The notes under the pieces were generated by a model. The model was not told where the DNA came from. It saw only the letters and a list, made by a program, of their open reading frames with translations, and did not search any database. 10,751 nt of DNA, from the UHGV virus genome UHGV-1843114. One strand, 5' to 3'. Origin of the DNA: a virus. Both the position numbers and the translations under genes were made by a program. Each line of letters starts with the position of its first letter. The stretch's first letter is position 1. This document shows, in pieces, positions 2,022 to 10,751 of the stretch.

Positions 2022-2369
2022 TCAGAACTCTTCGATGTTCCAGCCACCACCTGCTTTCTTTGGCTTAACCGTTACCCCGATGATTCGGAACGGATACTGA
2101 TCTGCGGCGACTTTGGTTTTCACTCTGGCGTCATCGGTCCAGAATCCCCCTTTCACTTCGTGCAGTTCCATCTCGCCGGTGGCGAGCATCACAGCAAAAT
2201 CTGGCGTATAGAACGTGTTGTCAGCTAACCGCAGCTTGATACCCTCAAATCGATACCAGACGATTTCTCCTGCACGTTTACGCAGCTCAAGGTGCTGGCA
2301 ATACGCAGATTCTGTTTTGTTCATCTGGCCTGTTTTGAGTCGACCAAGAGCCTGCATCTGTTTTCTCAT
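2022..2369 (-). CDS. Small PD-(D/E)XK nuclease-fold phage protein (DUF1064-like)
   Basis: 115-aa ORF with a motif ...YTPDFAVMLATGEMELHEVKGG... (D, then E-x-K) typical of PD-(D/E)XK nucleases. Overall resemblance to DUF1064 phage proteins from memory. SD AAGGGG upstream of the ATG at 2367-2369. Confidence 0.75.
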   Translation of the reverse strand: MRKQMQALGRLKTGQMNKTESAYCQHLELRKRAGEIVWYRFEGIKLRLADNTFYTPDFAVMLATGEMELHEVKGGFWTDDARVKTKVAADQYPFRIIGVTVKPKKAGGGWNIEEF

Positions 2370-2371
2370 GA

Positions 2372-2388
2372 TTTACCCCTTGGGTAAT
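2372..2388. promoter_or_regulatory. Operator-like 17-bp inverted repeat tTTACC-ccttg-GGTAAt, overlapping the SD of the DUF1064-like gene
   Basis: Perfectly symmetric half-sites TTACC/GGTAA with a 5-bp spacer. Same motif as the sites in the repressor/cro intergenic region. Confidence 0.45.
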
Positions 2389-2433
2389 TAAAAACCACAT
2401 AAGACACGAAATCAATAGATTTTAGAATATTTT

Positions 2434-2450
2434 ATTACCTCTAAGGTAAT
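2434..2450. promoter_or_regulatory. Operator-like 17-bp inverted repeat ATTACC-tctaa-GGTAAT
   Basis: Perfect 6-bp half-sites. Lies in the AT-rich gap between the P-like gene and the DUF1064-like gene. Confidence 0.45.
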
Positions 2451-2469
2451 TATCGAGACGTAAAAAAAT

Positions 2470-2481
2470 GCGCTATCGCGC
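2470..2481 (-). terminator. Weak candidate intrinsic terminator downstream of the P-like gene
   Basis: On the minus strand, GCGC-gata-GCGC hairpin followed by A plus TTTTTTT, 6 nt after the P-like stop. The stem is only 4 bp, so this is marginal. Confidence 0.3.
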
Positions 2482-2486
2482 TGGTA

Positions 2487-3287
2487 TTACTTGATAAATC
2501 CTGACGCCTTTCCCCGCCTGTATTCCTCCATCAGCCACTGCGCCGGTGTTATTCCCCCAAGGGTGGCGGCGTTAGGCATGCACCCGAAACTTCGCCCTGG
2601 TGGATGGTAAACATCTCTCCCTGTGTCCGGAGGCGTACTCATGGGTTCTGGCTTTGCCTGTATGCTGATCACCGGATCGGGTATCTGCTGTCCGGAAGCC
2701 ACCTTTTTCGCCCAATCATCGAGCAGCCTGCGCGCGTGTTTCTCAACCTCAATCTCGCTAAGCTGGCGCTGATACATTGCACGGCGGGTATCACATACGA
2801 CCCAGTACATAACCGGATGTCGCCACGGGAATCTTTCGGGACCACCAGGATATAAACTTTTTTCCTTGCTGTACCGGTGAAACTCCGCCATCACATCGTC
2901 AATGGTGACGCCAAGAACCATCTTGCTGTCTTTACACCACTTGATGAATTGCCCTGGCGACGGCCAGAACGGAGACTCACTGGCGCGGGCGTGGCGCATA
3001 CCAGCAGAAACCTGTTCACGGGTTCGGATCCCCCCTTCGGCAAACGCAGCAATCCACTGCTGTTTTGCAGCAACTTCCTGCTCTGGCGTCTTCAGGTTGG
3101 TTACCACTGCCGCCGGAAACAGTTGTTTCAGCTGTTTGAAAAGGGCATCAACAAGCCTCTCTGCTGACATGTTCACCACGTTGTCATTGTTGGTGTACTG
3201 ATGCTCATAACCTGACATGCGAGAAAGGGCTTCTCCGTCACGGTTTTGTATCGCGGTAAAAACGTTGTTCACAAGAAATCCTCCCAT
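2487..3287 (-). CDS. Replication protein P-like (DnaB helicase loader)
   Basis: 266-aa ORF. By-eye alignment to lambda P from memory: ...QLFPAAV... / ...ATFPASL..., ...EGGIRTREQVSAGMRHAR... / ...ENGITTMEQVNAGMRVAR..., ...PFWPSPGQFIKWCKD... / ...PFLPSPGQFVAWCRE.... Start is uncertain: the ATG at 3285-3287 overlaps the O-like gene's 3' end; alternative ATGs at 3216-3218 and 3168-3170. Confidence 0.8.
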   Translation of the reverse strand: MGGFLVNNVFTAIQNRDGEALSRMSGYEHQYTNNDNVVNMSAERLVDALFKQLKQLFPAAVVTNLKTPEQEVAAKQQWIAAFAEGGIRTREQVSAGMRHARASESPFWPSPGQFIKWCKDSKMVLGVTIDDVMAEFHRYSKEKSLYPGGPERFPWRHPVMYWVVCDTRRAMYQRQLSEIEVEKHARRLLDDWAKKVASGQQIPDPVISIQAKPEPMSTPPDTGRDVYHPPGRSFGCMPNAATLGGITPAQWLMEEYRRGKASGFIK

Positions 3288-4084
3288 GCTTCAGGGCTGT
3301 TCCAGTGCGGAACGTTGTTATCAGGTAATGTTGATTGCTTCTGTCTGCTAATCTGCAGCCGCCTTGCCAGCTTCTGCTCCCACTGTGCCTGATGGTATGC
3401 CTTACCCTCAGCCATCCAGTAAATTCTGAACTCTGCAAGTTCCTGTGCCGTTGGCAGACTGTCCAGGTAGATCCCCTGCAATGAGCTTTTCCGAAGAAAG
3501 TCATCTGATGGCTGCCATTGTTCATGCATGACAAATTTGCCTAATTGCCCTGGCCCACCAGGAGGAACAAAGTTATTCATCACGGCGTTGTTTGCGCCGG
3601 GGTCATGATGCACAGAATCCCCGTTTTTTGTCCTGCTCTCCCTCTCTTGGTTAAATGACTGGTTATATGACTGGTTCTGGATCCCGTTTTTGGGATCATT
3701 CAACATCCCGTTTTTGGGATCATTCAACATCCCGTTTTTGGGTATATTCCCGTTTTCGGTAACATTACCGTTTTCGGGTTCATTGCCCCCCTCTCGGTTG
3801 CCTTTAATGTTCCCGTTTTTGGTTATATTAAGAGAGAAAACCCGCACTCTTTTTGTCGCTCCCTTTCTCTCCCCGGTATCTGAAATAAGCCCCATTTTCA
3901 TGAGCGATATAAGTCCGGCCTGCACGGTTTTTTTATTCAGGCAAGTGTCTTTAACGAGGCGTTCTATGCTGGGGTAGCAGAGGTTATATTCATCGGCTCT
4001 GTCAGCCATCGAGAGCAGTATGAGCTTTAATGACGAGCTACCTGGATCTGTCTCCCAGGCCCAATCTGTTGCATGTCTGCTCAT
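3269..4084 (-). CDS. Replication initiator (O-like position): N-terminal HTH domain, iteron-encoded Asn/Gly-rich linker, DnaT-like C-terminal region
   Basis: 271-aa ORF, SD GGAG 9 nt upstream of the ATG at 4082-4084. N-terminus MSRHATDWAWETDPGSSSLKLILLSMADRADEYNLCYPSIERLVKDTCLNKKTVQAGLISLMKMGLI matches the HTH pattern of phage replication initiators (memory). Sits immediately upstream of the P-like gene and contains the iteron array. Confidence 0.8.
   Translation of the reverse strand: MSRHATDWAWETDPGSSSLKLILLSMADRADEYNLCYPSIERLVKDTCLNKKTVQAGLISLMKMGLISDTGERKGATKRVRVFSLNITKNGNIKGNREGGNEPENGNVTENGNIPKNGMLNDPKNGMLNDPKNGIQNQSYNQSFNQERESRTKNGDSVHHDPGANNAVMNNFVPPGGPGQLGKFVMHEQWQPSDDFLRKSSLQGIYLDSLPTAQELAEFRIYWMAEGKAYHQAQWEQKLARRLQISRQKQSTLPDNNVPHWNSPEAWEDFL
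3618..3830. repeat. Putative origin of replication: iteron array inside the initiator gene
   Basis: Seven copies of the core tCCCGTTTT(T)GG, starting near 3618, 3681, 3705, 3729, 3748, 3765 and 3810; three are exact 24-bp tandem units ATCCCGTTTTTGGGATCATTCAAC. Also a 10-bp tandem ATGACTGGTT at 3655-3664 and 3667-3676. Same layout as lambda ori inside gene O. Confidence 0.65.
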
Positions 4085-4099
4085 GATTAATCTCCGCTA

Positions 4100-4300
4100 T
4101 CAGCTTGAATGTTGTGGGGAGGAATTAATCATGATCTGCTTAATCTCTGCCCTGATACGACGGTTTGATTCCATGGTGCACTCAACACAGTGTCCGTTGT
4201 AAACCCAGCGTTCACTGTCATGTCCGTGCTTACATGTTTTTCCGGTGTAGTAGCGTTTAAGTCCGCGCTTTGCGGCATCAATACGTGTAATGATTTCCAT
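4100..4300 (-). CDS. Small putative zinc-binding protein (66 aa) at the cII position
   Basis: ATG at 4298-4300 with AGGG about 6 nt upstream. MEIITRIDAAKRGLKRYYTGKTCKHGHDSERWVYNGHCVECTMESNRRIRAEIKQIMINSSPQHSS contains C-x-H-x-H...H-C-x-x-C. The ORF track extends it to a TTG at 4363, which I consider less likely. Confidence 0.55.
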   Translation of the reverse strand: MEIITRIDAAKRGLKRYYTGKTCKHGHDSERWVYNGHCVECTMESNRRIRAEIKQIMINSSPQHSS

Positions 4301-4379
4301 GGTAAGCCCTGTTATTAGTATTGGGATTACGGTCATTTTGTGCTGACACAAAAAAAAGATCAACCAGATTTGGTTTTTT

Positions 4380-4396
4380 ATTACCTTTGAGGTACG
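4380..4396. promoter_or_regulatory. Operator-like site ATTACC-tttga-GGTACg between the terminator and the Zn-ribbon gene
   Basis: Left half-site perfect, right half-site 4 of 6. Same motif family as the repressor/cro intergenic sites. Confidence 0.4.
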
Positions 4397-4409
4397 AATA
4401 GATATGAAA

Positions 4410-4429
4410 AGACCGCCGGATGGCGGTCT
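4410..4429 (-). terminator. Intrinsic terminator downstream of the cro-like gene (tR1-like position)
   Basis: Perfect 8-bp stem AGACCGCC / GGCGGTCT with a 4-nt loop. On the minus strand it is followed by TTTTCATATC. No T-run follows it on the plus strand. Confidence 0.6.
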
Positions 4430-4450
4430 ACAGAGGGTTGTGGCTGGATA

Positions 4451-4681
4451 TCATGAGTAGAAGAAGTATGCCAGTTCTGCTTTTGAGCGCAGCCATTGTC
4501 TTGTTTTACAGGCTTTAAAAAGCCCATTCATCAATACCTTACCTGGCATTTTGCGCTTACCTGTTAAGTGAGTCTGGATATAGTGACTCGTCGTTCCGGC
4601 TTCCTGTGCGAAGGCTTCACGCTCATCCGGAGTAAGTGCAAGCCAGTGCTTTTTGAAATCGAAATGTCCGTTATCGCTCAT
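4451..4681 (-). CDS. Cro-like small HTH DNA-binding protein
   Basis: 76-aa ORF transcribed divergently from the repressor gene, with three operator copies in the shared intergenic region. Putative HTH around ...EAFAQEAGTTSHYIQTHLTGKRKMP.... Family assignment is tentative. Confidence 0.7.
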   Translation of the reverse strand: MSDNGHFDFKKHWLALTPDEREAFAQEAGTTSHYIQTHLTGKRKMPGKVLMNGLFKACKTRQWLRSKAELAYFFYS

Positions 4682-4716
4682 AGCTATTGCCTGATATTTA
4701 TTTCAGATAATAAATA

Positions 4717-4781
4717 TTCACCCATAAGGTAACAAAAATCAAGGATAGTTACCTATGAGGTGCATTTACCTGTTGGGTAAT
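4717..4781. promoter_or_regulatory. OR-like tripartite operator and divergent promoter region between the cro-like and repressor genes
   Basis: Three copies of the 17-bp motif: 4717-4733 tTCACC-cataa-GGTAAc, 4748-4764 gTTACC-tatga-GGTGCa, 4765-4781 tTTACC-tgttg-GGTAAT. A candidate minus-strand -35 TTGATT lies at 4736-4741 (read on the minus strand) with the first site in its spacer. Confidence 0.65.
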
Positions 4782-4835
4782 ATTGCTTTAAATTGAATCA
4801 TCTACTGATTCATATATGAGGCGATTTTCCAGAAA

Positions 4836-5420
4836 ATGAAAAGTATCCAGGACGTCCGCAGGCAAAATCTCAACGACTTGATCGACCGTGAATTCAATGG
4901 TGTTCAGACGCGGATGGCAGAAAAACTTGGAACTCAGGCAAATCTGGTAAACCGCTGGGCTCTTGGCAAGAAGGTTATCGGCGACCAGGTTGCACGAAAA
5001 ATTGAAGCTGCCGCCAATAAACCCCGTAACTGGCTTGATATTGATCGTTCGCTTTCTCAGGAGGGTTTTCAGCCTGTCGGCCCGAGCGATATAGGTCAGC
5101 TGGCGGCTCACAACCTGGAACGCTGGATGAGCGAAAGCCGCGACCTTTCAACACAGGGAAAACTTCACCGCGCATCCGGCGTCGCCCAGGTGACAATCAG
5201 CCGCCTGTTAAACAATGAGGTCAGCGTTTCCATTTCCACTCTGGAGAATGTTGCATCCGCATTCGGGCGTCACGGATATGAACTACTGATTCACCCGCAC
5301 GACCCTGCGACTATCAACTATGACCGCTCACGCTACGCATTGTTACCCGAAACCGAGAAAGCAAAGATCGAAAGTTACATTGAATTTGTCATCAACCAGA
5401 ACGAAAAAAGCAAACAATAA
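4836..5420 (+). CDS. Prophage immunity repressor (CI-like position), two HTH motifs, no LexA/S24-type autocleavage domain
   Basis: 194-aa ORF divergent from the cro-like gene. HTH-like segments QTRMAEKLGTQANLVNRWALGKK and ASGVAQVTISRLLNNEVSVS. No Ala-Gly/Cys-Gly cleavage site with a downstream Ser...Lys dyad was seen. Followed by a strong terminator. Confidence 0.75.
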   Translation: MKSIQDVRRQNLNDLIDREFNGVQTRMAEKLGTQANLVNRWALGKKVIGDQVARKIEAAANKPRNWLDIDRSLSQEGFQPVGPSDIGQLAAHNLERWMSESRDLSTQGKLHRASGVAQVTISRLLNNEVSVSISTLENVASAFGRHGYELLIHPHDPATINYDRSRYALLPETEKAKIESYIEFVINQNEKSKQ

Positions 5421-5440
5421 AACTATAGTTTTCAGTAAGT

Positions 5441-5466
5441 AAGCCGCCTCATGGCGGCTTTTTTAT
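5441..5466 (+). terminator. Rho-independent terminator of the repressor transcript
   Basis: Perfect 8-bp stem AAGCCGCC / GGCGGCTT, loop TCAT, followed by TTTTTTATT. Begins 21 nt after the repressor stop (TAA at 5418-5420). Confidence 0.75.
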
Positions 5467-5476
5467 TGCCAGATAG

Positions 5477-5555
5477 ATTACCTTGCGGGTAATTTTTTTA
5501 ACTCATATCTATTGACACCAAACCAAATAAGCATAATTATTACCTCAACGGTAAC
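5477..5555. promoter_or_regulatory. OL/pL-like region: two operator copies flanking a promoter
   Basis: Sites at 5477-5493 ATTACC-ttgcg-GGTAAT (perfect) and 5539-5555 ATTACC-tcaac-GGTAAc. Consensus -35 TTGACA at 5512-5517, with an AT-rich -10 candidate (AATTAT at 5535-5540, 17-bp spacer) partly overlapping the second site. Confidence 0.55.
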
Positions 5556-5573
5556 AGACCGAGGTAACAAGTT

Positions 5574-5726
5574 ATGCAGTGGAAAATCATCAACGGTTGG
5601 TACTGCGTTACTGCATGCGGATTCATGAGCTGGAAGTTCCGCACCTTACAGGAAGGCATTAAGTGGGCTTTCGTCAGCAAAGAAGCTCGCGATGTAGCCA
5701 ACGATAACGAGATATGGGAGGGCTGA
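5574..5726 (+). CDS. Small hypothetical protein (50 aa), first ORF of the early-left operon
   Basis: ATG at 5574 with SD GAGG about 9 nt upstream; translation MQWKIINGWYCVTACGFMSWKFRTLQEGIKWAFVSKEARDVANDNEIWEG; stop TGA at 5724-5726. Below the ORF-track length cutoff; found by manual translation. Confidence 0.4.
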   Translation: MQWKIINGWYCVTACGFMSWKFRTLQEGIKWAFVSKEARDVANDNEIWEG

Positions 5727-5728
5727 TA

Positions 5729-6028
5729 ATGAACGTTAATCAGCAGAAAAATCTTCAAAAAATCATGCTGGCATTCGACAAGGACTACCGCCTGTCAGAA
5801 CAGCTATATGACCGACAAGTTGAACTGATTGAGAGCATCCGACTTCATCAACTGTCCTCAACTTTCGACGTTGTAACAGGCAAAGGCGTTCGTCAGGAAG
5901 TGCTGGAGGCTGCTAAAGACAGCCCTGAGTTCGAAGAACTGATGGATTCCTACCGGCGCGAGGCAATGGCAATTATCGCCCGCTGGGATCTGGCGGATCG
6001 GATTGATGGGCAGAGGGAAGCGGCATGA
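5729..6028 (+). CDS. Hypothetical protein (99 aa) upstream of the exonuclease
   Basis: ATG at 5729 with SD GGGAGG 7 nt upstream; preferred over the track's 5714 start. Stop overlaps the exonuclease start (ATGATG at 6025-6030). No family recognised. Confidence 0.7.
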   Translation: MNVNQQKNLQKIMLAFDKDYRLSEQLYDRQVELIESIRLHQLSSTFDVVTGKGVRQEVLEAAKDSPEFEELMDSYRREAMAIIARWDLADRIDGQREAA

Positions 6029-6924
6029 TGCAGAACGCTGGAATCATGGATAGAACAAAATACATCGGAGGAAGCGATGTTGCAGGGATTCTTGGAATTA
6101 GCCCATGGCGCACCCCGCTTGAGGTTTATCTGGATAAGGTCCAGCCACGTGTCAAACCAGTAGACCCAAGCAAGCAGAAAGTTTTCACGCGTGGCCAGCG
6201 TATGGAGCCATACGTAATAGACCTGCTTTCTGAGGAAACAGGGATGGAAATCGTTCATCGCGGAAACCGCTATATCCACCGTGATTACGATTTTATTGCA
6301 GCTGAGATCGATGCAGAAGCAGCGTCAGGCGAGAACATTGAGATCAAAACAGTTAGTCCGTTCAAAGCCAAAGAATGGGGAGAAATCCAGACAGATGCAA
6401 TTCCTGTGCATTACACGGCCCAGGCCATGCACGGGTTGATGGTTACAAACAAACAGGTATGCGTTTTCGGTGTGCTTATCGGTGGCGACGACTTCCGAAT
6501 CTATCGGGTTGAGCGTGATGAAGAAACTATCCAGGCGATCTTAGAAAAAGAAATCGCTTTCTGGGACCGAGTGAAAAATCTTAACCCGCCGGAAGCTACC
6601 AGCGTAAGCGATGTATCGCTGATGTTTGAGAAAGATGCAGGGACAAGTATCGAGGCTGACGGAAAGGCACTCGCACTATTCAACGATCTACGAGACATGA
6701 AGTCACGCAGAAAATCACTGGAAGAAGAAATAGCTATATCAGAAGAGAAGCTGAAGATGTACATGCAAGAGCACTCAGTCCTGACCCTGGACGGAAAGCC
6801 GCTCTGCACATGGAAATCTCAGATCAGCAACAGATTCGACCAGAAGCTATTCCAGTCAGTACACCCTGAGTTATTCGAAAAATTCAAAACAACAACGACA
6901 CAACGCGTCTTCAGAATGAAGTAA
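6025..6924 (+). CDS. YqaJ-type viral exonuclease (lambda Exo-like recombination exonuclease)
   Basis: Motifs ...YIGGSDVAGILGISPWRTPLEVY... and ...IEIKTVSPFKAKEWGE...VHYTAQAMHGLMVTNK...FWDRV... match the YqaJ-like PD-(D/E)XK recombinase family (memory). Directly upstream of recT. Start is 6025 or 6028 (or 6046). Confidence 0.85.
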   Translation: MMQNAGIMDRTKYIGGSDVAGILGISPWRTPLEVYLDKVQPRVKPVDPSKQKVFTRGQRMEPYVIDLLSEETGMEIVHRGNRYIHRDYDFIAAEIDAEAASGENIEIKTVSPFKAKEWGEIQTDAIPVHYTAQAMHGLMVTNKQVCVFGVLIGGDDFRIYRVERDEETIQAILEKEIAFWDRVKNLNPPEATSVSDVSLMFEKDAGTSIEADGKALALFNDLRDMKSRRKSLEEEIAISEEKLKMYMQEHSVLTLDGKPLCTWKSQISNRFDQKLFQSVHPELFEKFKTTTTQRVFRMK

Positions 6925-6933
6925 GGAGAAAAA

Positions 6934-7956
6934 ATGTCTATCAATGCACTTAAGGCAGCGGCTACCGGTAACCAAGTTGCACATCATAATGAGAAACCAA
7001 CAACTCTGGCCGGACTTCTGGCAGACCCAAAAATTAAAGCTCAGATGGCTTTGGCACTTCCAAAGCACATGACAGCAGACCGTCTGGCGCGCATAGCAAC
7101 CACAGAGATCCGAAAGGTTCCAAAACTTGCATCATGCGACCAAGCCAGCTTCCTGGGGGCAATTATGCAATGTGCCCAATTGGGTCTTGAACCAGGCGGA
7201 GCTCTTGGACACGCTTACCTGATACCGTTCGACAAACGCCAGAAAGTAAATGGAAGATGGGAAACCGTATCTACAGAAGCACAGCTGATTATCGGCTATC
7301 GCGGAATGATTGACCTTGCCCGCCGCTCTGGGCAGATCCTGAGTATCTCGGCTCGTACCGTACATACAAACGACAAATTCAGCTACTCATACGGCCTGGA
7401 AGAAACGCTCGAGCATTTACCTTGCGAAACAGGTGACCGCGGAGAATTAACGCACGTTTACGCCGTTGCACGACTGAAAGATGGCGGAGTCCAATTTGAA
7501 GTTATGAGCCGGGCAGACATTGAGAAAGTTCGTGCACTGAGCAAAGCCGGTAGCAGTGGCCCATGGGTTGATCACTTCGATGAGATGGCTAAAAAAACAG
7601 TAATTCGCCGACTATTCAAATATCTTCCTGTTTCTATTGAAATGCAGAAGGCTGTTGTTATGGATGAGCGCGCTGAAGCTGGACTTAGCCAAGATAACGC
7701 AGCTGTTATCACTGGTGAATATTCCGTAGTTGACGATGAGCGTCAACACCTGTCGCCAATTTCAGATTCAGAACGAGAAGAAGCTCGAGAATATATCATC
7801 GCGATACTTAATAGCCTGGATCCATCTGCTGAAGATGCAAAAACGATGTTCAAGCGCGCTGAAAATGAGATTAACACCATGGCTGAAAAGCTCGGTGATG
7901 AATATCACCAAAAATTCATGATGACGCTTAACGATATGCGTCCAGAATTCGAGTAA
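6934..7956 (+). CDS. recT: RecT-family single-strand annealing recombinase
   Basis: 340-aa ORF with SD AAGGAG 7 nt upstream. RecT-like segments ...GHAYLIPFDKRQKVNGRWET...LIIGYRGMIDLARRSGQ.... Paired with the YqaJ-type exonuclease. Confidence 0.9.
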   Translation: MSINALKAAATGNQVAHHNEKPTTLAGLLADPKIKAQMALALPKHMTADRLARIATTEIRKVPKLASCDQASFLGAIMQCAQLGLEPGGALGHAYLIPFDKRQKVNGRWETVSTEAQLIIGYRGMIDLARRSGQILSISARTVHTNDKFSYSYGLEETLEHLPCETGDRGELTHVYAVARLKDGGVQFEVMSRADIEKVRALSKAGSSGPWVDHFDEMAKKTVIRRLFKYLPVSIEMQKAVVMDERAEAGLSQDNAAVITGEYSVVDDERQHLSPISDSEREEAREYIIAILNSLDPSAEDAKTMFKRAENEINTMAEKLGDEYHQKFMMTLNDMRPEFE

Positions 7957-8005
7957 CCACCACCGCGGCGCCACACGCGCCGCACTGCAACCAAGAGAGG
8001 TATTT

Positions 8006-8254
8006 ATGAAAGGTGCATTAGGTAAGAAGGAACTCCTGGCGGTGGTGCCACTGTCATGGAGCACTATCGACCGTATGGAGCGCGCAGGTGAATTTCCTAA
8101 ACGCTGGTATATCACTGACAAACGCTGCGCATGGAACCGTGACGAAGTTGAGCGTTGGCTTGATGAACGTCAGGCAGCAAGCCCGGCAGAGTTCCAGGGT
8201 AAAAAGCCTCCTGTTCAGCAACGTGTATATCGTCCTGTGAGCAACGCTGCATGA
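8006..8254 (+). CDS. AlpA-family phage regulatory protein / excisionase-like HTH protein
   Basis: 82-aa ORF with SD AGAGAGG. ...LSWSTIDRMERAGEFPKRWYITDKRCAWNRDEVERWL... matches the AlpA/Xis-type pattern (memory). This family is typically found near P4-type integrases. Confidence 0.8.
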   Translation: MKGALGKKELLAVVPLSWSTIDRMERAGEFPKRWYITDKRCAWNRDEVERWLDERQAASPAEFQGKKPPVQQRVYRPVSNAA

Positions 8255-8363
8255 GTGTGCTGCTAAGGCACTGGAGCAAATGGTCAGGATGGTACTTATT
8301 CCTGGCCTCTGTTTCAGCATGGCTTTATCTGCTGGCATTAATTTTCAGAGAGGGTTGGATTAA

Positions 8364-8663
8364 GTGAGAAAGTTAAGCCGACTTGAAAAATATCACATGA
8401 ACAAGGTTTCAATGCGCAGTCCGTCAAAGATTGTCGCCGTTACTCCTGCGGCGATAGAGATCGAAAAACGCGCGATTGAAAGAGAGAAAAAAGGGCAGTT
8501 CCGCATTGCCGCTCACCTTTGGCTTCAGTGTATGGATGTTGCTTCTGGTGATGTTGAGCGTGCAAGGATCGCGGTTCGCAGGGACCAATGTATCACAAAA
8601 GGTAACGGCCTTCGCCGTGGAGACTATAGCGGTATAGGATGTTGCGGGGTGGTTTATGACTAA
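8364..8663 (+). CDS. Small regulator, ANR-like (AraC negative regulator family) candidate
   Basis: ORF with uncertain start (GTG 8364, ATG 8397 or ATG 8415). ...FRIAAHLWLQCMDVASGDVERARIAVRRDQC... fits the ANR-family pattern as I remember it. Its 3' end overlaps the methyltransferase start by 8 nt. Confidence 0.5.
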   Translation: MRKLSRLEKYHMNKVSMRSPSKIVAVTPAAIEIEKRAIEREKKGQFRIAAHLWLQCMDVASGDVERARIAVRRDQCITKGNGLRRGDYSGIGCCGVVYD

Positions 8664-9306
8664 GAAATACACACTAATCTATGCAGATCCACCCTGGGTA
8701 TACCGGGACAAAGCCGCAGATGGTAATCGCGGTGCCGGTTTTAAATATCCGGTTATGAGTGTGCTGGATATCTGCCGCCTTCCTGTGTGGGATTTGGCCG
8801 ATGAAAACTGTCTGTTGGCCATGTGGTGGGTGCCAACACAACCACTCGAAGCACTAAAAGTTGTTGAAACCTGGGGATTCCGTCTGATGACGATGAAGGG
8901 CTTCACGTGGATAAAATGTGGTAGTCGACAACCAGATAAACTGGTTATGGGTATGGGACACATGACTCGCGCCAATAGTGAAGATTGCCTGTTTGCGGTA
9001 AAGGGAAAACTACCTACGCGCATTAATGCAGGGATCGTTTAGTCATTTACCGCACCGCGGCTTGAGCATTCAAGAAAGCCAGATATCGTTCGTGAAAAAC
9101 TTGTGCAATTATTAGGCGATGTTTCTCGCATTGAACTGTTCGCCCGCCAGACGTCTCATGGCTTCGATGTTTGGGGTAATCAGTGCGAAGACCCGGCAGT
9201 GCAACTACACCCTGGATACGCGTTGGATATTGGCGGATTAACAAATGCATTCAGCAATGCTCCGCTGTCACCAACAGACAACCAGGGGCGGGAGCGTGCT
9301 GCATGA
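8656..9306 (+). pseudogene. MT-A70-family DNA N6-adenine methyltransferase interrupted by a single in-frame TAG at 9040-9042
   Basis: The N-terminal ORF (8656-9042) carries the catalytic motif ADPPW. The same frame continues after the TAG as SFTAPRLEHSRKPDIVREKLVQLLGDVSRIELFARQTSHGFDVWGNQ..., which contains the family's conserved HSRKP and ELFAR...WGN motifs, to a stop at 9304-9306. The track splits it into two ORFs in the same frame. Confidence 0.75.
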
Positions 9307-9497
9307 ACAGGGCATCACCAGCAGATTTAAGAAAATGCCTTGAAACTGCAAACATGCTTGCACACAGCGGGATCAGGTTTGTTCCAATTCCCGCTGTCAC
9401 TGATGCTGAATTTGCAACACTGTCAGCAATATTCGAAAACAAAATTGAATCACTGGCAGCAGAAGCAGAGATGGAAGAAAATCAGCAGAACTATTAA
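9303..9497 (+). CDS. Hypothetical small protein (64 aa)
   Basis: ATG at 9303 overlaps the methyltransferase-frame stop (ATGA). Translation MNRASPADLRKCLETANMLAHSGIRFVPIPAVTDAEFATLSAIFENKIESLAAEAEMEENQQNY. The track's longer 9183 start is less likely. Convergent with the integrase. Confidence 0.55.
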   Translation: MNRASPADLRKCLETANMLAHSGIRFVPIPAVTDAEFATLSAIFENKIESLAAEAEMEENQQNY

Positions 9498-9500
9498 ACG

Positions 9501-10751
9501 TTATTCCCCCGCCATCCACTTCTCAAACTTCGACGGGGAGAACGGAATCAGATCCGTATGCTCCCCGTCAATCCATGAATCAATCATATCGGCCCACTGC
9601 TGCAACATGTAGGCGCGCTGTCTGGCGTATTCCGCTTTGTTATATACGGCGCGCACACCTTTCTGCTCATGTGCCAGAGCCTTTTCAATCCAGTCTGAAG
9701 GATAACCAGCCTCATGCAACAACGTACTGGCTGTACGGCGCATATCATGTACAGTGAAGTCCTGAATATGCTCACCATCTTCATTTATTATTTTCACCGT
9801 TCTGTCGATCAGAGAGTTCAGCGCGGCATTAGATAATGGCTTCCGGAAATTGTAACGACCAGGAACCAGATATTCACTTCCACCAGCGCACATCTGCAAC
9901 CCGACCAATATATCCTGTGCCTGTTTAGGCAGGTAAATAACGTGCGCCCGGCTTCCCTTCATGCGGTCTGGAGGAATTGTCCATGTCCATTTTTTAAAAT
10001 CTATTTCATCCCACGTTGCATTGGTGAATTCGCCCTTACGAACCATAGTGATAAGCACCAGTTTTAAAGCCATTTTCATAGTGCCCATAGCACCAATGGC
10101 ATCCAGCGTGCGGAAGAACAGGCCAATTTCTTCTGGTGTCAGTGTTCGCTCTCGTGGTTTAAATATGGCGATAGACGAAGGTTTAATGTCAGCCGCAGGA
10201 TTAAACAAACCATGACCACGGTCATTGGCGTGACGGTATACGCTACTGATGATCTCCCTGGCCTGCACTGCTGTTGCCCGGCCACCGCGTTCGACAATCC
10301 GGTCACACAAATCACGAACCATCGATGTGGTAATTTCAGCCATCATTTTATTGCCAAGAACCGGAAGTATGTCACGGTCGATCACCGCCTGTTTCATTGC
10401 GCGGGTACTGTCAGCCAGGATGACGTGTTTCATATAACTGTCGGTATGTACCGCAAACGTCTCGGCACCACGAATCTTTTTGATACCGTCACGTTTAGCC
10501 GCAGCCGGTGACTGGCCTGCTTTAAGCAGCTTCTTTGCAGCAATCAGTTCTTCTCGCGCTTCTGCCAGGCTGATACCGTCACGCCCATACTGCCCGATTA
10601 CCAGTGTTTCGCGGCGACCGTTGATACGGTAGTCATAGCGAAACGAGACCGTGCCTGACGTAAGCACAGCTACATACAGCCCGTCACGATCGGAGACCTT
10701 GTACAGTTTGTCCTGCGGCTTGAGGTTTTTTAATTTTGTATCGGTAAGCAC
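9501..10751 (-). CDS. int: Tyrosine site-specific integrase, P4-type; N-terminus at or just beyond the right window edge
   Basis: N-terminal ...LTDTKLKNLKPQDKLYKVSDRDGLYVAVLTSGTVSFRYDYRINGRRETL... is the typical P4-family integrase arm domain. C-terminal catalytic signature HDMRRTASTLL ... ALAHE...VRAVYNKAEY (H-x-x-R and the Tyr nucleophile). The frame is open to the last base of the window. Confidence 0.9.
   Translation of the reverse strand: MLTDTKLKNLKPQDKLYKVSDRDGLYVAVLTSGTVSFRYDYRINGRRETLVIGQYGRDGISLAEAREELIAAKKLLKAGQSPAAAKRDGIKKIRGAETFAVHTDSYMKHVILADSTRAMKQAVIDRDILPVLGNKMMAEITTSMVRDLCDRIVERGGRATAVQAREIISSVYRHANDRGHGLFNPAADIKPSSIAIFKPRERTLTPEEIGLFFRTLDAIGAMGTMKMALKLVLITMVRKGEFTNATWDEIDFKKWTWTIPPDRMKGSRAHVIYLPKQAQDILVGLQMCAGGSEYLVPGRYNFRKPLSNAALNSLIDRTVKIINEDGEHIQDFTVHDMRRTASTLLHEAGYPSDWIEKALAHEQKGVRAVYNKAEYARQRAYMLQQWADMIDSWIDGEHTDLIPFSPSKFEKWMAGE

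Follow-up and report, generated by a model that had tools for sequence, protein, structure and literature searches.

The window analysed here is the whole stretch of 10,751 nucleotides (nt) from the virus genome UHGV-1843114, and the subject of the analysis is the control of early transcription around its repressor and cro-like genes. Positions 4100-6028 showed 97-99% identity to Escherichia phage phiV10 (DQ126339) and close Uetakevirus relatives, and the window corresponds to the immunity/early region of a prophage of the phiV10/epsilon15 type (Uetakevirus), which is defective. An earlier note, made from the sequence alone, had described a lambda-like layout with an intrinsic terminator behind the cro-like gene, had proposed regulated read-through of this terminator into the replication genes, and had placed two small open reading frames (ORFs) in the position of the lambda antiterminator gene N.

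On the minus strand, the cro-like gene (4451..4681, from the ORF list) encodes a protein of 76 amino acids (aa) and corresponds to phiV10p41 and epsilon15 gp39. Behind it lies a hairpin, tCro (4429..4410), located by pattern scan, folding and the phiV10 annotation. A predicted promoter, P2, separates tCro from the gene for a 66-aa Cys/His-rich protein (4300..4100; phiV10p42, epsilon15 gp40), which is the first gene after P2. A DnaT/O-like gene (4084..3269) and a lambda-P-like gene (3287..2487) follow, and then a DUF1064 gene (2369..2022) with further genes beyond. On the plus strand, the repressor gene, with two helix-turn-helix (HTH) domains (4836-5420), is followed by the terminator tRep (5441-5460), which ends the repressor transcript, and by the predicted early-left promoter PL (5512-5540). 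The first PL gene encodes a 50-aa protein (5574-5726; phiV10p39, epsilon15 gp37) and the second a 99-aa protein (5729-6028; phiV10p38, epsilon15 gp36; the mechanical ORF starts at 5714). Further along are genes for a YqaJ-type exonuclease (6025-6924; Pfam YqaJ, E = 3e-23) and a RecT annealing protein (6934-7956; Pfam RecT, E = 3e-57). AlpA-like, PerC-like and methylase genes lie downstream of RecT on the same strand, and the integrase gene, on the minus strand, is convergent with the PL operon.

Much of this layout can be read from existing records. The phiV10 record annotates p41 at the cro position with a 'putative rho-independent terminator' behind it, and lists p42 (66 aa), the DnaT-like and lambda-P-like replication genes and then another terminator. 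The two-HTH repressor is p40, with a terminator of its own, and p39 and p38 are hypothetical proteins. Gene order in phiV10 and epsilon15 is as in the window, with terminators annotated after the cro-like gene, the repressor gene and the P gene, the last by inferred and not by aligned position. The window differs from phiV10 in having separate epsilon15-type YqaJ and RecT genes instead of a RecET fusion, and from both phages by the IS10-like element inserted in its right arm and by the nonsense codon within its methylase gene. The lambda-like layout described in the earlier note was borne out, with divergent repressor and cro-like genes, PL after the repressor terminator and replication genes of the lambda-P/DnaT type. 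Both small ORFs proved to be real, conserved genes, belonging to PHROG 898 (50 aa) and PHROG 856 (99 aa).

The repressor was found to carry Pfam HTH_3 and a YdaS-type HTH, and matched PDB entry 5D50 ('Repressor') over its full length with E = 3.5e-42. It is a homologue of Rep of Salmonella phage SPC32H. Overexpression of an orthologue in phage ZX5 shuts down the lytic genes (PMC9782041); the same paper mentions four predicted promoters and says nothing on antitermination. According to the summary in PMC9638917, Rep binds palindromic sites as a tetramer, with the DNA-binding pairs drawn from different dimers. The motif TTACC-N5-GGTAA, with up to two mismatches, occurred 12 times in the window against 2.8 matches expected, and none of 200 shuffled sequences reached 12. 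All five exact copies are intergenic, at 5478 and 5540 (PL), at 4766 (the right operator region, OR) and at 2373 and 2435 (between the P gene and the DUF1064 gene). Copies with one mismatch lie at 4718 in OR and at 4381-4395, 14 bp downstream of the cro hairpin. In the epsilon15 GenBank record (AY150271) ATTACC-N5-GGTAAT is labelled as repressor binding site at PL and ahead of the post-replication genes. With a Rep homologue and enriched intergenic operators at its early promoters, the window fits an epsilon15/SPC32H-type repressor-operator system, and the same operator clusters were found in 12 relatives.

The spacing of the operators was also highly regular. Operator pairs are exactly 62 bp apart at both PL (5478/5540) and P3 (2373/2435), the promoter region ahead of the DUF1064 gene. 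This holds in most relatives, including six of eight genome loci; in two Klebsiella loci the PL pair is spaced by 63 bp. OR has three operators in all relatives, with start-to-start distances of 17 and 30-31 bp. The binding mode of the Rep tetramer fits the 62-bp pairs, and in this respect, as well as in the homology of the repressor, the window resembles the Rep/Ant system of SPC32H (PDB 5D50, 5D4Z). The difference is that the antirepressor gene lies outside the window and that the operators here are putative sites whose occupancy is predicted from sequence. The TTACC/GGTAA half-sites shared by phages from about nine genera raise the question of how far homoimmunity among them extends.

Each operator cluster was found together with a candidate promoter. 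OR and the early-right promoter candidate PR occupy 4707..4780, with operators at 4718-4732, 4749-4763 and 4766-4780 and the promoter candidate TTGTTA-17-TATTAT at 4735..4707. The PL module (5478..5554, plus strand) consists of an operator (5478-5492), 19 nt, a -35 hexamer TTGACA (5512-5517), 17 nt, a -10 hexamer AATTAT (5535-5540) and a second operator (5540-5554). The P3 module after the P gene (2373..2481, minus strand) begins with a weak hairpin followed by seven T (2481..2470) and contains operators at 2449..2435 and 2387..2373, with two promoter candidates, TCGATA-16-TAAAAT (2456..2429) and TTGATT-17-TTTAAT (2415..2387). At both PL and P3 the -10 hexamer overlaps the second operator by one base. 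The epsilon15 record annotates one of the two P3 operators. Of 12 relatives checked, 10 had the 62-bp pair at P3; in the remaining two the locus may stop short of P3. Candidate sigma-70 promoters were ranked by a position-weighted score with weights based on published consensus frequencies. Among 107,160 candidates in the window PL ranked first, PR third, P2 fifth and the P3 candidates 10th and 18th. The early-left promoter assumed in the earlier note (TTGACA-17-AATTAT, 5512-5540) was accordingly the best sigma-70 match in the window. Leaders at PR and PL are short, about 20-27 nt ahead of the start codons.

P2 (4363..4335, minus strand) consists of a -35 hexamer TTGATC (4363..4358), a 17-nt spacer and a -10 hexamer CAAAAT (4340..4335). 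Read along the minus strand, the hairpin is followed by the operator GTACCTCAAAGGTAA, 17 nt, TTGATC, 17 nt, CAAAAT and a degenerate operator, and then by a Shine-Dalgarno sequence and the ATG of the 66-aa gene. The first operator is the palindrome GTACC-N5-GGTAA (4395..4381), one mismatch away from TTACC-N5-GGTAA. The geometry of P2 is like that of PL and P3, namely an operator, 17-19 nt, the -35, 17 nt and a -10 abutting a second operator. P2 is a predicted sigma-70 promoter of the replication unit, and it is absent from the annotation of phiV10 and epsilon15.

Conservation of this block was analysed in orthologous intergenic regions from phage records and one genome per species, covering E. 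coli, Enterobacter, Salmonella, Klebsiella, Citrobacter, Erwinia, Kluyvera, Buttiauxella, Pseudocitrobacter and Scandinavium. The diverged relatives came from the genome scan; a scan of viral contigs gave 80 loci whose cro-like protein is identical, and these served for the counts of mosaicism and synteny and not for divergence. Majority-base frequencies were calculated from ten non-redundant sequences (relatives from nine genera). The GGTAA half-site reached 1.00, the -35 hexamer 0.98 and the -10 hexamer 0.97, compared with 0.64 for the spacer, 0.52 for the central N5 of the operator and 0.61 for the leader. Spacing stayed constant at 16-17 nt while the letters of the spacer drifted. The P2 block was found in 90 of 95 loci, and a full NNACC-N5-GGTAA site in 10 of the 13 loci checked, with the GGTAA half invariant. 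In ZX5-type phages a mosaic breakpoint falls directly after TTGATC, yet CAAAAT is still present 16 nt on.

Two other explanations of the conserved block were tried and rejected. As an RNA hairpin or plus-strand terminator it would need its AACCA/TGGTT palindrome as a stem, but this is not kept in foldable form among the relatives and the fold gave a z-score of only -0.85. Control by Dam through the GATC in the -35 was rejected since several variants have GATA, hence GATC is not required. A short palindrome adjoins the P2 -35 at 4362-4375, AACCAAATCTGGTT in the window and CCATATATGG or CCAAATACGG in relatives, and it may be the binding site of a regulator. A second copy of it was not found in the window. 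In Klebsiella and Enterobacter relatives the bases ahead of this palindrome read TTATCCAAA or TTATCCATA, which resembles a DnaA box.

The cro-like protein matched PHROG 35 ('transcriptional repressor', E = 6e-13), and its orthologues were 57-84% identical across nine genera; the label 'Cro' for the 76-aa protein refers to its position. The hairpin behind its gene (4429..4410) was found by pattern scan as AGACCGCC-AUCC-GGCGGUCU followed by UUUUCAUAUCU. Its stem of 8 bp includes six GC pairs and folds with -15 kcal/mol (z = -4.5), and none of 200 shuffled sequences folded as well. The tail, UUUUCAUAU, contains a short U-tract with four U ahead of the first C. A discriminant of the d'Aubenton-Carafa type was positive at about 25-33. 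Together with the phiV10 annotation, these values uphold the claim that an intrinsic terminator follows the cro-like gene, and tCro is probably an intrinsic terminator of moderate efficiency.

A GC hairpin after the cro-like gene was kept in all 13 relatives, and changes in the stem preserve pairing, for example GCCGCC/GGCGGC versus GCCACC/GGUGGC. The tail is variable, from UUUUUUAUU in Buttiauxella and UUUUCAUAU in the E. coli type to UCCUUCCU and UCCUGCCU in epsilon15, Citrobacter and Klebsiella. The versions from E. coli, Enterobacter, Erwinia, Buttiauxella and Scandinavium have a U-rich tail and score as terminators. Those of epsilon15, Citrobacter and Klebsiella, with a degenerate U-tract, score as non-terminators, and promoter P2 is retained there. 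The U-tract is thus less conserved across the relatives than P2. If read-through were regulated, the terminator would be expected to be conserved at least as well as the promoter, and the reverse was observed. With an operator and a conserved promoter intervening and a U-tract that is not conserved, the proposal of regulated read-through into the replication genes was not sustained. The strict 'promoter-coupled terminator' of a 2026 preprint, in which termination occurs at most 35 bp from the start site, was considered and rejected; the gap here is about 75 nt. A GC hairpin lacking a U-tract was noticed directly after recT as well (7965-7983, plus strand; GCGGCGC-CACAC-GCGCCGC, -17.3 kcal/mol, z = -3.1). 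It resembles the U-less cro hairpins of the epsilon15/Klebsiella relatives and may be an RNA-stability or processing element.

On the other arm, tRep (5441..5460, plus strand) is a strong intrinsic terminator (-21 kcal/mol, z = -5.8) and is annotated in phiV10. Beyond it, a pattern scan of the plus strand from 5460 to 10517 found no terminator-like site. Genes of the PL operon overlap or lie close together, which would leave hardly any untranslated RNA on which Rho could act. In an operon that has no intrinsic terminator, an N-like function is not called for.

The search for antitermination elements gave the same picture. In the N-terminal region, the maximum number of arginines per 11 residues was one for the 50-aa and two for the 99-aa protein, compared with five for lambda N. 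Arginine-rich starts in the window were confined to spurious out-of-frame ORFs, with none in genuine ORFs. Four boxA-like matches occurred in the window against six expected, which is not above chance, and none was in an early leader; no 5-bp stem with a GNRNA pentaloop of the boxB type was present in any early transcript. The absence of an arginine-rich N-terminus and of boxA/boxB-like nut elements, as stated earlier, was therefore confirmed. Nothing relevant was found in the window in an Rfam search (E <= 10). Neither small ORF matched Pfam or NCBIfam (E <= 0.1), and their PHROG families are of unknown function, so that an assignment to an N family found no support in these profile searches. 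For RNA of the put type, 120-nt stretches from the predicted PR, P2 and PL starts, covering the leader and the beginning of the first gene, folded no better than shuffled sequences (z = +0.5, -0.2 and -0.6), in a test that was structural only and with the presence of a put model in Rfam unconfirmed. No match to Q families was found among the scanned ORFs of the window. An AlpA-family protein (8006-8254; PF05930) matched PDB 8c3t ('AlpA family phage regulatory protein', E = 2e-11) and PHROG 66 ('excisionase and transcriptional regulator'). Its gene lies about 1.2 kb from the integrase gene, and the excisionase role is more likely because of this location in the integration/excision part of the left arm.

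Homologues of the two small proteins at the start of the PL operon were present in Escherichia, Salmonella, Citrobacter, Klebsiella, Enterobacter, Kluyvera and other genera. The 50-aa protein matched PHROG 898 with E = 2e-38; its N-terminal 25 residues are nearly invariant and its C-terminus is variable. Its structure model, with a predicted local distance difference test score (pLDDT) of 54, was unusable for a fold search. A resemblance by eye to lambda CIII (PF02061), in the patterns MQ[YW]xI..GW and RxLx[DE]GxK, was rejected, as hhalign gave a probability of 0.5% and none of 19 family members matched PF02061 even at E <= 10. The CIII and Gam query sequences used in such comparisons were validated against PF02061 and PF06064.

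The 99-aa protein matched PHROG 856 with E = 8e-55. It is acidic, with an isoelectric point of 4.9, and is predicted to form two long helices (pLDDT 65, low confidence). An exhaustive search with a hidden Markov model yielded 32 representatives among 1.84 billion proteins, all from this one small family and with no link to a named family. No sequence match was found in PDB, and Foldseek with the low-confidence model gave none in PDB or BFVD. The stop codon of the gene overlaps the start of the exonuclease gene (ATGA, 6025-6028), and this overlap was kept in 85 of 92 related loci, with the exonuclease being RecE/DUF3799-type in 40, YqaJ-type in 24 and the phiV10 RecET fusion in 21. A mosaic junction falls exactly at the ATGA, where the exonuclease type switches between the epsilon15-type YqaJ + RecT of the window, the RecET fusion of phiV10 and the RecE/DUF3799 type of ZX5/Tyrion. 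Insertions of about 1 kb in several relatives, some of which include a 319-aa gene, fall between the 50-aa and the 99-aa genes. Overlap with any type of exonuclease, together with insertions upstream, indicates that the 99-aa gene leads the recombination module and does not fill the N slot. The alternative offered in the earlier note, that the 99-aa protein goes with the exonuclease, agrees with the synteny and with the overlap.

Since the exonuclease type changes at the junction, an accessory specific for its partner is less likely than a factor independent of the exonuclease. A role of the 99-aa protein as host-nuclease inhibitor or general accessory factor is put forward tentatively. That it might be an unrecognised RecBCD inhibitor or universal accessory, travelling with three unrelated exonuclease families, is likewise a tentative proposal, less radical and more likely than that of a new early-transcription factor among the conserved early proteins. 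Lambda Gam offers a comparison by position: the 99-aa protein is small, acidic and helical and is encoded directly upstream of the recombination genes of a PL operon, and its presence independent of exonuclease type is as expected for a factor directed at a host nuclease. No sequence or fold relationship was found. Homology with Gam (PF06064) was rejected, as hhalign gave 12% over 33 columns (AFDxD...E.I..HQ) and there was no Pfam or fold match, but a Gam-like role would fit as a positional analogy.

Taken together, the early region would be best described as a chain of short, separately repressed transcription units insulated by terminators, rather than as one lambda-style operon. Each unit would start from a separate sigma-70 promoter flanked by TTACC-N5-GGTAA operators, to which the two-HTH repressor would bind, and would end in a hairpin terminator. 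PR would serve the cro-like gene up to tCro, P2 the 66-aa, O-like and P-like genes up to tP, the weak hairpin at the start of the P3 module, and P3 the DUF1064 gene and the genes beyond. On the other strand, the repressor transcript would end at tRep, and PL would serve the 50-aa, 99-aa, exonuclease and RecT genes and the rest, stopping just short of the convergent integrase gene, an operon within which no intrinsic terminator occurs. On removal of the repressor all promoters would fire, and the replication genes would be transcribed from P2 together with read-through of the moderately efficient tCro. A processive antiterminator would not be required. The 50-aa and 99-aa proteins would not be analogues of N. 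The former would be an early PL product, and the latter would be encoded by the gene that opens the recombination module and is translationally coupled within it. The sequence elements, their conservation, the homology of the repressor and the synteny underlie the scheme, and promoter activity, operator occupancy and terminator efficiency are predicted from them. With moderate confidence, this chain of separately repressed units with no lambda-N-style antiterminator is the preferred explanation.

Several observations weigh against it. P2 agrees with the consensus at only 8 of 12 positions, the first T of the -10 being absent, and it could be weak or activator-dependent. The P2 operator is imperfect, with one or two mismatches, and is a mere half-site in the Erwinia, Buttiauxella and Scandinavium relatives, and the second operator, overlapping the -10, is degenerate. 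Silencing of P2 in the lysogen is hard to explain with such a pair. With 4 bp and z = -1.4, the tP hairpin is weak and not significant alone; phiV10, as noted, annotates a terminator at the corresponding place.

An alternative explanation could be that P2 is inactive or negligible, and that the replication genes are reached by partial read-through of tCro from PR, which is constitutive and free of any factor, with the short U-tract setting the ratio of cro to replication gene expression. The short tail UUUUCAUAU and the moderate terminator score are in line with this, as is the partial consensus match of P2. The epsilon15 and Klebsiella versions of the hairpin, which score as non-terminators, would make read-through the rule in those phages. 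This explanation leaves the near-invariant TTGAT(C)/AAAAT at 16-17 nt across nine genera and the adjacent operator without a reason, as well as the geometry that P2 shares with PL and P3, and it is regarded as unlikely, though it deserves consideration.

The main role of the hairpin could also lie in the 3' end, stability or processing of the cro-like mRNA, and not in termination. It is the stem and not the U-tract that is conserved in 13 of 13 relatives, with tails ranging from UUUUUUAUU to UCCUGCCU, and the similar U-less hairpin behind recT (7965-7983) would belong to the same kind. On the other hand, the U-rich tails of the E. coli, Enterobacter, Erwinia, Buttiauxella and Scandinavium versions score as terminators. 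As the main role of the hairpin this is improbable; such an element would be compatible with the unit-by-unit scheme and does not exclude it.

One of the conserved early proteins may be a new early-transcription factor, either an antiterminator without an arginine-rich motif (ARM) that works on tCro and tP or a protein that activates the conserved but sub-consensus P2. Candidates would be either of the two small PL proteins, or the cro-like protein at the palindrome abutting the P2 -35, but the chance of any of these being correct is judged to be slim. In the antitermination version, the 50-aa, 99-aa or cro-like protein would modify RNA polymerase at tCro and tP. The 50-aa protein is indeed the conserved first PL product, in the N position, and both small proteins fall in families of unknown function. 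On the other side, no ARM and no nut- or put-like element was found, PL is free of intrinsic terminators, and every terminator of the right arm is followed by a promoter/operator module of its own. Both proteins are also kept in relatives whose hairpin has lost the U-tract, and the 99-aa gene follows the exonuclease and not the promoter. An ARM-less antiterminator is thus highly improbable. RNA antitermination of the HK022 put type, encoded just downstream of the early promoters, has the absence of a protein candidate as its sole point in favour and is the least credible of all, given stretches from the predicted PR, P2 and PL starts that fold no better than shuffled sequence, leaders of some 20-27 nt at PR and PL and no Rfam match.

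The window shares with lambda the divergent repressor and cro genes, with PL located after the repressor terminator and a terminator behind cro, as well as P-like replication genes and a PL operon that includes recombination genes. It differs in having no N homologue, ARM or boxA/boxB and in a PL operon with no internal intrinsic terminator. Lambda tR1 is Rho-dependent, whereas the post-cro terminator of the window is intrinsic and is followed by a predicted repressor-controlled promoter. What follows is mainly a correction, in that antitermination as in lambda is not implied by a gene order as in lambda, and the sequence supports a simpler design in which each early unit would be under its own repressor-controlled promoter.

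As a kind of system the region is largely ordinary, a temperate-phage immunity region of the standard type in which promoters are under repressor control and terminators are intrinsic, and its elements are already in the annotation of phiV10 and epsilon15. What may so far be missing from annotation is P2 with its operator, as well as the close coupling of the 99-aa gene to an exonuclease of any type. Two leads follow, both modest and neither opening a long-standing question. One is the highly conserved, unannotated predicted promoter/operator ahead of the Uetakevirus replication genes. The other is the 99-aa protein, coupled to whichever exonuclease is present and a reasonable candidate for an anti-RecBCD or recombination accessory protein.

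The window also carries signs of prophage decay. Positions 1-471 are the right end of an insertion sequence (IS) element of the IS4 family, ISVsa5/IS10-like, with the transposase C-terminus at 114-458. The IS10-like terminal sequence ...GGGGATCTCTCAG ends at 471, adjoining the early-right arm of the prophage, which is therefore interrupted there. This junction was absent from the complete E. coli genomes of the collection. The gene for an adenine methylase of the MT-A70 type (8656-9306, plus strand) has an in-frame TAG at 9040-9042, codon 129, where phiV10p33 has CAG. It is a pseudogene in this copy, which is a second sign of decay.

Two further proteins were noted. phiV10p55 (minus strand, outside the window), the last early-right gene of phiV10, matched PHROG 536 ('transcriptional regulator') and combines a basic N-terminus (MAKSAAERKAAQRARQ...) with a Cys-rich C-terminus. 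Its position makes it the obvious candidate for the late-gene regulator, and the corresponding part of the prophage would lie past the IS insertion. The 66-aa protein (4100-4300, minus strand) has a zinc-finger-like motif, CxHxH...CxxC, and matched PHROG 1081 (unknown function), the alignment beginning at residue 22 of the mechanical 87-aa ORF. It showed weak similarity to the endonuclease VII family, and a diverged homologue was found at the equivalent place in ZX5-type phages.

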